From positions 8,020 through 72,019 of the forward strand of contig JALFDW010000037.1 in NCBI GenBank assembly GCA_022778545.1: a DNA stretch of 64,000 nt, written 5' to 3'. Source of the DNA: a bacterium (GTDB taxonomy: Bacteria; Bacillota; Clostridia; Christensenellales; CAG-138). Below the pieces are notes generated by a model. It made no database searches. It saw nothing but the letters and a program-made list of their open reading frames with translations, and had not been told where the DNA came from. The stretch's first letter is position 1, and every line of letters begins with the position of its first letter. Positions 6,089-10,905 of the stretch are shown here, piece after piece. Both the position numbers and the translations under genes were made by a program.

Positions 6089-7759
6089 TTAGAAAAGCCC
6101 GGTGATGTTTCCTGCTTCGTCTATGTCGATCCGCTCTGCCGCAGGCAATTTCGGGAGGCCGGGCATCGTCATCACCGTGCCCGTATATGCCACGATGAAG
6201 CCCGCGCCCGCGCAGGCCTTAAGATCGCGCACCGTCACGGTAAAGCCCTCCGGCGCACCAAGCAGCGTGGGGTCATCCGAAAAGCTGTATTGCGTTTTTG
6301 CAACGCATACCGGCAGATTTGCAAGGCCGGTTTCCGCAAGGAGCTTCTCCTTTTTCTCCGCTTCGGCAGTGAAGTGCACATCGGCGCCGCCATATACGCT
6401 GCGCACGATGGCGCGCAGTTTTTCGCGCAGCGGCATGGCATCGTCATAGGAGAAGCGGAAATCGTTTTCCTTCTCGCACAGGCGCACGACCTGTTCCGCA
6501 AGCGCAGCCGCACCCGCGCCGCCTTTCGCCCATGCTTCGCAGCACACGGCCTCGATCCCACGCTCCGCGCAGAGCGATTCGACCAGCGCAAGCTCCGCCT
6601 CGGTATCCGTCGGGAAGCGGTTCACGGCCACAACGGCCGGCAGGCGGAAGGTCTCCGTGATCACCTGCACATGGCGGAACAGGTTGGCAATGCCCTTGCG
6701 GATCGCTTCCGTGTTCTCCGCCCCAAGCTCAGCCTTGGGAACGCCGCCGTGCATCTTGAGTGCGCGCGCCGTAGCGACGATCACAACGGCGGAGGGGCGA
6801 ATGCCGGACTTGCGGCATTTGATATCAAGGAACTTCTCTGCGCCAAGATCCGCGCCAAAGCCCGCCTCCGTCACGACATAATCCGCAAGGCGCGCAGCCG
6901 TTTTTGTTGCGATCACGCTGTTGCAGCCATGGGCGATGTTTGCAAACGGCCCGCCATGGATGAGCGCAGGCGTATGTGCAAGCGTCTGCACCAGGTTGGG
7001 TTTGAGCGCATCCCGCAAAAGCGCCGCCATTGCGCCATGCGCCTTGAGGTCAGCCGCCGTAACGGGTTTGCCTGCGCGCGTATAGCCCACAATGATTGCG
7101 CCAAGGCGCGCTTTCAAATCGGCAAGATCCTCCGCGAGGCAAAGCACGGCCATTACTTCGGATGCAACGGTAATCTCAAACCCATCCTCGCGCGGCATGC
7201 CGTTCATCGTTCCGCCAAGCCCGCTCACGATATGCCGGAGCTGCCTGTCGTTCATGTCCACCGCCCGCTTCCAGGAAATGCGCTTCACGTCGATATCGAG
7301 CGCATTGCCCTGCTGGATGTGATTGTCGAGCATCGCTGCGAGCAGGTTGTTTGCCGCGCCTATGGCATGCATGTCACCAGTGAAATGGAGGTTGATGTCC
7401 TCCATCGGGACGACCTGCGAATATCCGCCGCCCGCCGCGCCGCCTTTTATGCCGAATACCGGCCCGAGTGACGGTTCGCGCAGCGCGATCATCGTTTTTT
7501 TGCCGATCAGTGCAAGCCCGTCGCCAAGGCCAACGCTCACGGTCGTCTTTCCCTCGCCGGCAGCGGTCGGCGTAAGCGCCGTAACAAGAATGACTTTCCC
7601 CGCCCGTTTTCCTTCCGGCAGCGTTTTTACGTTCACCTTTGCCTTGTAGCGCCCATAGTATTCAAGCGCCTCCTCCGGGATGCCCGCGGCTTCCGCCACA
7701 TCACGAACCGGCCACATCTCCGCCGCCTGCGCGATTTGCAGATCGCTCATCTGTTCCAT
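6089..7759 (-). CDS. fhs: Formate--tetrahydrofolate ligase
   Basis: [39 protein letters not shown]; AGGAGG SD before MEQMSD. Confidence 0.98.
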
Positions 7760-7832
7760 GCTGTTCCTCCTGCTCAAATAATACTTAACCCACCCAAACG
7801 GCAGGTGATTTACCATTCAGCCCAATAAAATC

Positions 7833-7861
7833 AGTGTAGCATATCCCATCACAGCGCGCAA
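7833..7861 (-). promoter_or_regulatory. Putative sigma-A promoter of fhs
   Basis: TTGCGC-17 bp-TACACT with TG extended -10 on the minus strand. Confidence 0.5.
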
Positions 7862-7884
7862 GAAAGGAGCGGATTTCTATACAT

Positions 7885-8020
7885 AAAAATAAAACCCTGC
7901 GTATCTTCGACTTCATTCTCCCATAAAGGGCCTGAACGCTCTGCACAGGAAATCCTGCTTCACGCAGAGAACCTCGGAGCTCACCCTTCGTTGAGCCCGG
8001 TGCGAAGATATTTCGGGTTT
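7885..8020 (-). ncRNA. Unassigned structured small RNA (~135 nt)
   Basis: 5' and 3' ends pair (AAACCC/GGGUUU, UAUCUUCG/CGAAGAUA); internal stems; U-rich tail; begins at the predicted +1 of a consensus promoter; no ORF with an SD. Confidence 0.65.
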
Positions 8021-8026
8021 GTAAGT

Positions 8027-8054
8027 ATTATATCATTACATAATATGCTGTCAA
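8027..8054 (-). promoter_or_regulatory. Consensus sigma-A promoter driving the small RNA
   Basis: TTGACA (8054-8049)-16 bp-TATAAT (8032-8027) with TGn extended -10. Confidence 0.85.
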
Positions 8055-8128
8055 GCACTCACCGCACATTTTTGCGAAGTGTTAAAGAGAGCAATCCATG
8101 CGGAACAATAAGGAGGGTAAGTTGATGC

Positions 8129-8161
8129 GAAGGGAGCCGGACAAGCAGCCCGGCTCCCTCC
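8129..8161 (-). terminator. Hairpin ending the pheST-membrane protein transcript
   Basis: AGGGAGCCGG-loop-CCGGCTCCCT inverted repeat; weak U tract. Confidence 0.5.
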
Positions 8162-8174
8162 TGAAGCACTTCCG

Positions 8175-8486
8175 TTACTTAAAGTATTTCTGGTTGCTCT
8201 TGTATGTTGCGACCCAGCAGCCGATGCCGACGGCAACCGCGATCCCGATCCACAGATATTTGAGCCAGGCAGCATTGTCATAGGGGATGAACGCGCCCGT
8301 TGCATAAAACGCGAAGTCCGCGCCCCACACCAAGTTGATGATCCCGTTTTCCCGGCACCATGCCCGCTTGTCATCCTCATCCTCAATGGCTGTGCGCGCC
8401 GTTTCGGGAATATGCTTTCCCAGCAGCATCAGCACGCCTTTCACAGCTACCCAAACTGCGCAAATGTAAATCAGGATCGTTACCAT
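8175..8486 (-). CDS. Small hypothetical membrane protein (about 3 TM segments)
   Basis: AAGGAGG SD directly at the pheT stop; three hydrophobic stretches in 103 aa. Confidence 0.75.
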   Translation of the reverse strand: MVTILIYICAVWVAVKGVLMLLGKHIPETARTAIEDEDDKRAWCRENGIINLVWGADFAFYATGAFIPYDNAAWLKYLWIGIAVAVGIGCWVATYKSNQKYFK

Positions 8487-8499
8487 GCCATTTTCCTCC

Positions 8500-10905
8500 T
8501 TATGCTCTGAGCTGTGCGCCAAGGCGCGCTGCAAGCGTATCGATCACGCACTTCATAGCCTGCTGGATCTCGTCATCATTGAGCGTATGGTCGTTTGCAG
8601 AAAGCGAGAACGAATACGCCATGCTCTTTTTGCCCACCGGGATGCCCACGCCGCGGTACACGTCAAACAGCTCCGCATCGCCGATCGTCACCGCAGCGGG
8701 TGCCCGCAGGATCGCTTCCTTCACAGCCGCCGCGCTTATGCTTTCATCGACCACGACCGCGATGTCACGCGGGACCTTCGGGAAGCGCGGCAGAGGCGCA
8801 TAGGTGCGTTTTCCGCCCTTGTGCGCGCGCAGCTTCTCAACATTGATCTCCGCATAATATACCTTTTGCGGAATGCCCCACACCTTCTGCACCTTGGGGT
8901 GGACTGCGCCAAACTCACCGATGGCCTCGCCGTCTGCAAGCAGCAGCGCCTTCTGCCCGGGCTGGAAGTATTCTCCGCCGCCCGGCACAACCGAGCAGTA
9001 CTCCTGCATGCGGAACGCCTCGAGCACCGCCTCAATGCTCCCCTTGAGCGTAAAGAAGTCCTCATCCTCCCCGCTGAAAGCAATGCCGAGCATCTTGCGT
9101 TCTTCCGGCAGATCGGCATTGTTGTCAAAATGCACGTTCCCGACCTCGAAGAAGCGTGCCTGGCCCGTTTTGCGGCTGAAGTTGCGCGCGAGGGAATCGA
9201 GCACACCCGCAAGCAGCGTCGTGCGCATAAGGCTCTGATCCTCACCGAAGGGGTTGAGGAGCTTCACTGCAAGGCGTTTTTCATCGCCTTCCGGGATGCG
9301 CAGCGCGTCAAGCGCCGCGGGGCCGGTGAAGTTGTAATTGTACATCTCACAGCAGCCCTGCGCAACGAGCGTATCCTTGATGGCATCCTCATCCTTCAGA
9401 TCCTCTCCGATCCGGCCGCGGAAGGTATTGCCGGTCATCAGCGTGGGTGGGATGTTGTCATAGCCGTAAATGCGGCCGACTTCCTCCGCAATGTCCCAAT
9501 CCGCCTCAATGCCGCTTTCGATATCCGTGCGGAAATGCGGCACATCCACACGCAGCTTGTCGCCGCAGACCTCGGAGGAGATGTTGATGGTAGCAAGCAT
9601 CTTCACCATGTCCTCCGGTACGATACTCGTGTTCAGGATCTTGTTCACATGGGCGTAATCCACATCGATCACGCGCGGAGAAACATCCGCCGCGCAAACG
9701 TCGATCGCCTCGCCGATCACCTTGCCCGCATGGAGATCGTCCACAAGTTCGATGGCCCGTTCCAGCGCAAGGTAAGCATTCACCGGCTCCACGCCCTTAA
9801 TGAAGCGCGCGGCTGCGTCTGTCACATGGCGCAGTTTGCGCGTCGTCGCGCGGATGTTGCTGCCCTTAAAGGCCGCTGCCTCGAAAAGCGTCGCCTTGGT
9901 GTTCTCCGTGATCTCGGAGTTTTCGCCGCCCATCACGCCCGCGATGCCGACGCCCTTCTCCGGGTCCGCAATGAGGAGCATTTCCGGCGTCACGGCGCGC
10001 TCCTTGCCATCGAGCGTTACGACGGTCTCGCCCTCATGCGCGTTGCGCACAACGATGTGCCCATCCGCCACACAGGCCAGGTCAAACGCATGCATCGGGT
10101 GGCCGTATTCCACAAGAACATAGTTCGTGATGTCCACGATGTTGTTGATCGGCCGCATGCCGACCGCGCGGAGCCTCCGCTGCATCCACTTCGGGGAAGG
10201 CTCGATTACAAGATCCGTCACAACGCGCGCGGCATAACGCGGGCAAAGCTCCGTGTTTTCCACGGTAACGCTCGCATAATCCGCCGTGTTTCCGGTGCCG
10301 GCGACCGGGCGGATCACAGGCTCCCTGAACTTCTGCCCAAGCGCAGCCGCAGCCTCGCGGCAGATGCCGATGATGCTCTGGCAATCCGCACGGTTCGGGG
10401 TCAGTTCGATATCGAAAATGATGTCGTCCATGCCGATCGCGGTCTGAATCGGCTGGCCAAGTGGATGCTCCTCCTGCAGGATCATGATACCGTTGAATTC
10501 CGCGCCGGGGTAATCCGCCTCCGTAAGGCCGAGCTCCTTGCCGGAGCAGAGCATGCCCGCGCTTTCCACGCCGCGCATGTTCGTGGGCCTGATCTCGATC
10601 CCGCCCACGAGTTTTGCGCCATCCAGCGCCACAGGCACGAGCGCGCCTTCAAACACGTTCGTCGCGCCCGTCACGATGCAGAGCGGCGTTTCCCCGCCCA
10701 CATCGATGGAGCAGATCTGCAATTTGTCCGCGTTCGGATGCTTTTCAAGCGCATTGATGCGCCCCACCACAACGCCGGAAACGTTGGGCATCTCGTCCAG
10801 AATATCGGCGACCTCGAAGCCGCGCCACATCATGCGCTCCACGAATTCCTCGGGCGTCACATTCCATTCCACATAATCCTTCAACCAGCTCAATGGCAGT
10901 TTCAT
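8500..10905 (-). CDS. pheT: Phenylalanine--tRNA ligase beta subunit
   Basis: MKLPLSWL, HPNADKL, ELTPNRADC, B3/4 domain, EEVGRIYGY, FDX-ACB C-terminus. Confidence 0.98.
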   Translation of the reverse strand: MKLPLSWLKDYVEWNVTPEEFVERMMWRGFEVADILDEMPNVSGVVVGRINALEKHPNADKLQICSIDVGGETPLCIVTGATNVFEGALVPVALDGAKLVGGIEIRPTNMRGVESAGMLCSGKELGLTEADYPGAEFNGIMILQEEHPLGQPIQTAIGMDDIIFDIELTPNRADCQSIIGICREAAAALGQKFREPVIRPVAGTGNTADYASVTVENTELCPRYAARVVTDLVIEPSPKWMQRRLRAVGMRPINNIVDITNYVLVEYGHPMHAFDLACVADGHIVVRNAHEGETVVTLDGKERAVTPEMLLIADPEKGVGIAGVMGGENSEITENTKATLFEAAAFKGSNIRATTRKLRHVTDAAARFIKGVEPVNAYLALERAIELVDDLHAGKVIGEAIDVCAADVSPRVIDVDYAHVNKILNTSIVPEDMVKMLATINISSEVCGDKLRVDVPHFRTDIESGIEADWDIAEEVGRIYGYDNIPPTLMTGNTFRGRIGEDLKDEDAIKDTLVAQGCCEMYNYNFTGPAALDALRIPEGDEKRLAVKLLNPFGEDQSLMRTTLLAGVLDSLARNFSRKTGQARFFEVGNVHFDNNADLPEERKMLGIAFSGEDEDFFTLKGSIEAVLEAFRMQEYCSVVPGGGEYFQPGQKALLLADGEAIGEFGAVHPKVQKVWGIPQKVYYAEINVEKLRAHKGGKRTYAPLPRFPKVPRDIAVVVDESISAAAVKEAILRAPAAVTIGDAELFDVYRGVGIPVGKKSMAYSFSLSANDHTLNDDEIQQAMKCVIDTLAARLGAQLRA

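Follow-up and report, generated by a model that had tools for sequence, protein, structure and literature searches.

The stretch of DNA analyzed here (the window, 64 kb in length) comes from an uncultured pig-gut Clostridium, the assembly of which is labelled G000, and carries on its minus strand a predicted RNA gene of ~134 nt (7887-8020, from the putative +1 to a point within a U-tract). The gene is located on the same strand as fhs (6089-7759, minus strand; formate--tetrahydrofolate ligase, NF010030, 907 bits), ~125 nt upstream of the fhs start codon; fhs is a neighbor that lies outside the RNA unit. The first-pass annotation of this DNA placed the RNA between pheT and fhs. The identity of both flanking genes, including pheT (8500-10905), was confirmed, but a 119-aa ORF (8175-8534, minus strand) and a GC-rich hairpin 3' of this ORF (8132-8158, minus strand) also separate pheT from the RNA, which, in G000, sits between that hairpin and the promoter of fhs itself. 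The ORF matches no Pfam or NCBIfam family, its C-terminus (..YKSNQKYF) is kept in the genus, and equivalents of the hairpin are found in the congeners G004 and G005. By eye, hydrophobic stretches can be recognized in the encoded protein, and the ORF follows pheT in all congeners examined.

A promoter scan of the minus strand identified a sigma-70-type promoter that consists of a TTGACA -35 hexamer (8049-8054, minus strand), a 16-nt spacer and an extended -10 box, TGaTATAAT (8027-8035, minus strand; TG at 8035-8034 and TATAAT at 8032-8027). This promoter matches the consensus at 12/12 positions and is the sole site in the region even at a looser threshold of 9/12, with shuffled versions of the region averaging 0.6 +/- 1.0 sites; no strain variant falls in the -35 hexamer. 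Transcription would start at about 8020-8022, and AAACCC, the 5' strand of the closing helix, begins 6 bases past the -10 box. Both the consensus promoter and the start near 8020, at the beginning of a stem, had been proposed in the first-pass annotation, and both hold. The RNA has, then, what is expected of a stand-alone small RNA (sRNA) gene, namely, a promoter of its own (12/12 plus the TG), the geometry of which is kept in the only homolog described below, from the congener G001. The counterparts in G001 are TTGACG at the matching distance and TGaTAACTT with the same 6-nt gap (xxTTAC) to the first base of the closing helix P1; the -10 box of G001 is a weaker, 3/6 match and is not called by the promoter scan.

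For the 134-nt RNA, the predicted folding energy is -51.3 kcal/mol (z = -3.90); none of 200 shuffled sequences is as stable, and the G001 copy gives a closely similar value (z = -3.84). The opposite strand folds nearly equally well (-45.0 kcal/mol, z = -3.72), so the strand assignment relies on the promoter, the U-tail and conserved G.U pairs and not on the fold. The predicted structure is a four-way junction of P1a/P1b, H2, P3 and H4, all on the minus strand. In P1a, AAACCC (8015-8020) pairs with GGGUUU (7892-7897) in 6 pairs, and the 3' strand continues straight into the U-tract; in P1b, UAUCUUCG (8003-8010) pairs with CGAAGAUA (7902-7909) in 8 pairs. H2 (7977-7998) is a hairpin of GGGCUCA and UGAGCUC (7 pairs) with an 8-nt variable loop, and H4 (7914-7938) has the arrangement CGUUC..CCC-loop-GGG..GAAUG (8 pairs). 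The apical arm P3 (7939-7969; CUCUGC..GCAGG-AUUU-CCUGU-GCAGAG) consists of two stems, of 6 and 5 bp, separated by a one-sided bulge of 5 nt, and is capped by a 4-nt loop. All stems named in the first-pass annotation are present in this fold (AAACCC/GGGUUU, UAUCUUCG/CGAAGAUA, the apical CUCUGC..GCAGAG and GGGCUCA/UGAGCUC). Inspection by eye of the two available sequences led us to reject a K-turn within the internal loop of P1, as well as pseudoknots between loops or at the junction; none of these is kept in G001.

Past P1, the RNA runs into a U-rich tail, UUUUAUUUUU (7885-7894, minus strand), a putative intrinsic terminator; the complete tail GGGUUUUAUUUUU spans 7897-7885, with the 3' end of the RNA predicted at about 7887. 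A P1 helix followed by a U-tract is found in both G000 and G001, where the tail in the same place is UUUUUCUUUUUU. We infer that P1 and the U-tract terminate the transcript and that the two ends are as given above. Such a terminator would be unusual in that the P1 stem closes a multi-branch junction, and the terminator scan, with its loop limit of 3-8 nt, cannot call it.

The only real match in a BLAST search of 61 related genomes was in the congener G001 (76% identity over 105 nt, E-value 4e-13). The two copies differ at 33 of the 127 aligned positions, and yet, in a two-sequence structural alignment, 79 of the 80 pair cells (98.8%) remain occupied by standard pairs. Six pairs are changed on both sides: one in P1a, which also contains the single unpaired cell, in G001; two in P1b and two in H4, both of which are 100% paired; and one, G-C to A-U, in the likewise 100% paired H2. 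When the 3' partners were slid by 1-3 columns, pairing dropped to 36-49% and there were no both-side changes in any of the six controls. In a simulation with 33 random substitutions, a mean of 14.2 pairs were broken, compared to the one observed, a count of at most one broken pair occurred in 0 of 200,000 trials, and the probability of at least 6 compensatory changes was 3e-4 (0.03%); these figures come from an alignment of two sequences that was fitted by a model built on the same structure, and the shuffle control of the tool itself amounts to only 11/500. The covariation rests on a single species pair because only two sequences exist. Covariance models built from the G000 RNA alone (R1) and from both sequences (R2) match 8020-7891 at 166.8 and 149.4 bits, respectively.

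Conservation between the two sequences is unevenly distributed over the fold. The P3 stem is almost invariant, with 10 of its 11 pairs never varying and one varying on one side, and the strands of the junction are conserved at 12 of 16 positions. For the five hairpin loops, bulges and internal positions of H4, 12 of 26 positions are conserved; for the internal loop of P1, the figure is 3 of 9. Individually, the H2 loop is conserved at 2 of 8 positions, the P3 bulge at 2 of 5 and the P3 loop at 3 of 4, and the length of the H4 loop varies between G000 and G001. Three of three DNA sequencing runs, the contigs of which cover the whole 501-nt stretch compared, list strain variants on both flanks, namely, 5 sites in 7797-7823 and 12 in 8039-8121, as well as three indels at 8088-8092. 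No variant is listed in 7824-8038, a segment that comprises the RNA, the -10 box and the fhs promoter, which is only a hint of constraint because rare variants are dropped by contigs.

The RNA is predicted to occur in two of the six species of the genus. BLAST detected it in 2 of 240 genomes of the family (G000 and G001) and in one of 400 genomes of a class sample (G000 only, with one further genome unscored). Searches with R1 gave 2 of 151 genomes of a family sample; those with R2 gave one of five congeners at E<=10 (G001), 2 of the 40 nearest genomes under laxer filters, a single copy in the G000 genome itself and, in an order sample, G000 along with one marginal match of 18.7 bits to a 27-nt hairpin. 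A pattern scan of metagenome contigs returned at least 117 stretches, and none of the 80 loci examined among these matches R1: 64 of the 80 share one identical 35-nt match within unrelated sequence, and most of the remaining ones are variants of that match or unrelated. The family may be wider than G000 and G001. Among the sequencing runs, 19 DNA rows, mostly from pig-gut metagenomes, contain at least half of the sampled words; the one possible RNA run (X20) covers only 8109-8200 and 7783-7817 and thus no position of the RNA gene, and no RNA run is listed among those that carry the sequence.

Comparison with known families yielded no relative. Rfam 15 gave no match at the gathering score in the whole 64-kb window, and the three matches obtained at E<=10 within 7700-8200 are at chance level, belong to unrelated families and all lie outside 7887-8020. 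ARAGORN predicted no gene in 7700-8200, that is, nothing resembling tRNA or tmRNA. Combined with the promoter and with the closing helix followed by a U-tract, this result supports one of the possibilities raised in the first-pass annotation, a new class of stand-alone, trans-acting RNA. The genomic context points the same way: the G001 homolog occupies another locus, with no co-directional gene downstream, and the fhs promoter is independent of the RNA (see below). Taken together, these sequence comparisons indicate a genuine structured sRNA that stands alone, is restricted to this lineage and represents a new family; it is neither 6S RNA nor an fhs riboswitch.

The RNA probably acts in trans through its folded core. 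We favor this mode because the junction strands and P3 are conserved while the loops vary; an invariant arm and junction, combined with covarying peripheral helices and free loops, is the pattern of aptamers and protein-binding RNAs rather than that of seed-pairing sRNAs. Under this scenario, a housekeeping-type extended -10 promoter would start transcription at the first base of P1, the RNA would close as a four-way junction of P1a/P1b, H2, the long sequence-invariant P3 and H4, and the 3' strand of P1 together with the U-tract would end the transcript after ~134 nt. The whole unit would be a module residing at different intergenic sites in its two species, independently of fhs, and its core would bind a protein or a small ligand in trans, with no loop serving as a seed for pairing with mRNAs. 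Our confidence is high for the RNA gene and its four-way fold and only tentative for the mode of action, trans-acting and core-binding; the overall explanation, a self-contained sRNA gene whose product binds through its core in trans, is in our view moderately probable. None of the neighboring genes points to a partner protein or ligand.

Among characterized RNAs, close parallels include the riboswitch aptamers with four-way junctions, such as SAM-I, yybP-ykoY and NiCo. Like these, the RNA has a compact junction that P1 closes, conserved positions that cluster at the junction and in one arm, variable peripheral loops, and a terminator U-tract immediately after the fold. Unlike these, it has its own promoter at P1, no expression platform and no tied downstream gene, and no Rfam riboswitch model matches it at E<=10. 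Y RNA/YrlA, the partner of Ro (Rsr), is also a small RNA in which the paired ends close a multi-branched module; the module is tRNA-like, and Y RNA probably functions through protein binding. However, the TROVE/Ro domain (PF05731) was not found in the 92%-complete G000 assembly, and both ARAGORN and Rfam were negative for the RNA; a Y-RNA-like role is unlikely because no Ro/TROVE gene was found. The orphan ncRNA motifs that have come from comparative genomics, for example, raiA, are likewise structured RNAs of Clostridia with their own transcription signals; those classes are widespread, in contrast to the two species found here, and no Rfam 15 model matches our RNA.

The main rival to core binding is base pairing via the P3 3' strand. 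Under this alternative, the apical loop and the 3' strand of P3, UUUCCUGUGCAGAGCG, would open and block the ribosome-binding regions of mRNAs, in the manner of the C/U-rich loops of Firmicute sRNAs, which block translation at ribosome-binding regions. P3 is indeed the longest invariant stretch, with UUUCCUGUGCAGAGCG identical in G000 and G001; the apical UUUCCUGUGCA is partly anti-Shine-Dalgarno, with UUCCU being anti-SD-like; and several candidate start regions contain sites, at -8 to -44, to which conserved 9-11-mers of P3 are complementary. These start regions, however, were chosen for an SD motif, so AGGAA/UUCCU complementarity is expected. Furthermore, an 11-bp helix sequesters most of the putative seed, leaving only 4 nt in the loop, and all other loops vary. 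When duplex energies were scanned over 3,756 start regions, no usable signal emerged: the best real value was -70.3, compared to -59.8 and -61.7 for two shuffles, and the duplexes were unrealistically long. We consider this alternative to the core-binding reading unlikely.

The location of the homolog in G001 raises the question of mobility. The G001 copy is on contig C60, whereas the fhs gene of this genome is on C11, and the RNA is flanked by an LRR/dockerin gene in divergent orientation and by small ORFs in convergent orientation that match no Pfam or PHROG family; neither the LRR/dockerin gene nor the other neighbors, PnuC-type and chromate-transporter genes, are RNA-related. On the 3' side of the RNA, there are a copy of a 230-nt repeat and an IS end. 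In the sister species G003, the stretch that holds the RNA is absent from the syntenic site. The fhs gene of G000 shares 85% identity with those of G004 and G005 and 80% with that of G001, so by this measure the two carriers are not each other's closest relatives; the distribution is therefore patchy, which suggests gain, loss or relocation of a self-contained module. The RNA could belong to, or be a remnant of, a small cassette that is mobile or recombines, for example, a ribozyme, a selfish RNA gene or an RNA that partners with a mobile-element protein, which would explain both the patchy distribution (two of six species) and the change of locus, and would fit the position of the G001 copy beside the repeat and the IS end as well as the imperfect 14-nt direct repeat around the RNA body in G000. 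We regard such an origin as quite improbable: no match to the RNA was found in phages, plasmids or viral contigs, there is one copy per genome, no gene for a transposase, reverse transcriptase or nuclease adjoins the RNA in G000, the known ribozyme families give no match, and the homology between the two loci is limited to the promoter, the RNA and the terminator, with no terminal inverted repeats seen. A bolder version of the preferred reading combines these themes: a minimal cassette of promoter, RNA and terminator that moves from one intergenic site to another in gut Clostridia and encodes a new compact four-way-junction class, a free-standing aptamer that senses a ligand or sequesters a protein in trans, with P1 doubling as closing helix and terminator. 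This version is speculative and rather improbable.

The 14-nt direct repeat (79%) spans 7873-7886 and 8030-8043, with one copy in the promoter spacer and -10 box and the other just past the terminator. It may be a trace of the insertion or duplication of the RNA unit, or due to chance.

The proximity of the RNA to fhs suggested, already in the first-pass annotation, a switch that controls read-through into this gene: as a cis-acting leader (riboswitch or attenuator), the RNA would set read-through through ligand-dependent stability of P1. In favor of such a role, the RNA is on the fhs strand at the short distance given above, its junction-centered conservation resembles that of an aptamer, and P1 would also serve as the terminator stem. 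Comparison with the congeners argues otherwise. The fhs gene was found in four of the five congeners (with the query used, it was not found in G002), and, in all four, the order pheT, 119-aa ORF, fhs is kept without the RNA. The promoter assigned to fhs in the first-pass annotation (TTGCGC-17-TACACT; 7833-7861, minus strand) recurs in nearly the same sequence in G005, where TTGCGCGCTGT..GGATATGCTACACTG comes directly after the terminator hairpin of the upstream gene, with no RNA gene between them; in G000, the same promoter (7861-7833) comes after the terminator of the RNA. The proposed promoter is therefore supported by its conservation in a genome that lacks the RNA, and the RNA unit has the appearance of a ~300-nt insertion upstream of this promoter. 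The G001 homolog lies away from fhs, with convergent ORFs downstream of it, a separate expression platform is lacking, and no THF, ZTP or other Rfam riboswitch model matches the RNA at E<=10; the first-pass annotation had likewise recognized no ZTP or THF consensus. Thus, the read-through switch suggested there finds no backing, with the G001 copy lying away from fhs and the fhs promoter being independent of the RNA in the relatives, and a leader function is very improbable.

The 5' leader of fhs itself (7760-7832, minus strand) contains a hairpin, CACCUGCCGUUUGGGUGG in G000, CUGCCGCUUGCGGCAG in G005 and CCACCGCUUGCGAUGG in G004; its position is kept and its sequence varies among the congeners. 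This hairpin could be a small regulatory element of fhs.

The other specific proposal of the first-pass annotation was a miniature 6S-like decoy, that is, an open-promoter mimic that would sequester the RNA polymerase holoenzyme, based on a second, rod-like fold. The rod can be drawn in G000: its long-range helix (AAGGG-UGAGC with GUUCA-GG-CCCUU) leaves an internal bubble of ~14/15 nt and costs only about 4 kcal/mol relative to the junction fold. This alternative is peculiar to the G000 sequence. In the two-sequence alignment, the long-range helix is 78.9% paired, with 4 of its 10 pairs broken in G001 and no compensatory changes, and the rod is ~15 kcal/mol worse than the junction fold in that species, whereas H2 and H4, the hairpins that compete with it, carry three compensatory changes. 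Hence, of the two alternative folds initially described, the rod can be formed on paper in one species and is not shared by the other. The 6S RNA (ssrS, RF00013) is similar in being stand-alone and strongly promoted, with paired 5' and 3' ends, and E. coli ssrS is also located upstream of a folate-related gene; it differs from our RNA in length (173-175 nt for the 6S RNA of the genus, compared to ~134 nt) and architecture (a rod with a central bubble as opposed to a four-way junction).

RF00013 has no match at E<=10 in 7700-8200 and none in the whole G000 assembly, which, taken alone, would leave room for a substitute. However, a canonical 6S RNA scores above the Rfam cut-off in all five congeners; these genes share 94% identity with one another and do not resemble the four-way-junction RNA, and one of them, of 173 nt, coexists with the RNA in G001. 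In the 92%-complete G000 assembly, the 6S neighbors rpe and rsgA, which all five congeners possess, were not found either, and contig C13 ends (about 95945-96364) ~1 kb before the position that 6S occupies in G002. Because these neighbors are missing too and the contig stops so close to the expected site, the absence of ssrS from G000 is most likely an assembly gap. With no match to the 6S model, a rod broken in G001, covarying H2 and H4, and a separate 6S gene in G001, a miniature 6S RNA is highly improbable, and the decoy proposal finds no support.

At the 6S locus of G004 (L056, contig C4), a large serine recombinase gene abuts the 6S RNA, tRNA and rpe, which suggests that this site is an integration hotspot.

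It is hardly conceivable that the locus is non-functional, either as a neutral remnant of DNA or as a short coding frame: only two copies are known, and a 53-aa GTG frame (7946-7785) does open at the same place in G000 and G001, so that the first-pass statement that there is no ORF with an SD is right on the SD and passes over this frame, but the frame begins inside the P3 helix and crosses the terminator and its U-tract, the two peptides share nothing after the first ~17 residues, random substitution would have broken many more than a single pair, and variants are listed on both flanks and not in the RNA in the three DNA runs.

If expressed, the RNA would represent a new family of structured RNAs in uncultured Clostridia of the pig gut; its four-way junction is well defined, and it has no known relative. 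Conservation centered on the junction is typical of protein or ligand binders, so the RNA is a candidate for one half of a new RNA-protein or RNA-ligand pair. For genome annotation, it should carry neither a 6S nor a folate/one-carbon riboswitch label. With only two species known to carry the RNA and no functional lead, its significance is limited; on the present predictions, the family is new but its kind is ordinary, that of stand-alone structured sRNAs.

The repeat found next to the G001 locus is a GC-rich element of ~230 nt that has no Rfam match at E<=0.1. Single copies are present in G001 downstream of the RNA locus (L190:9730-9852) and in G003 (C62:307-411 and C43), including one at the site syntenic to the G001 RNA locus. 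In G000, outside the window, at least three tandem copies are found at the start of C38 (1-690), and the end of C39 (22900-23238) is their reverse complement (loci L193 and L194), so that the repeat causes an assembly break.
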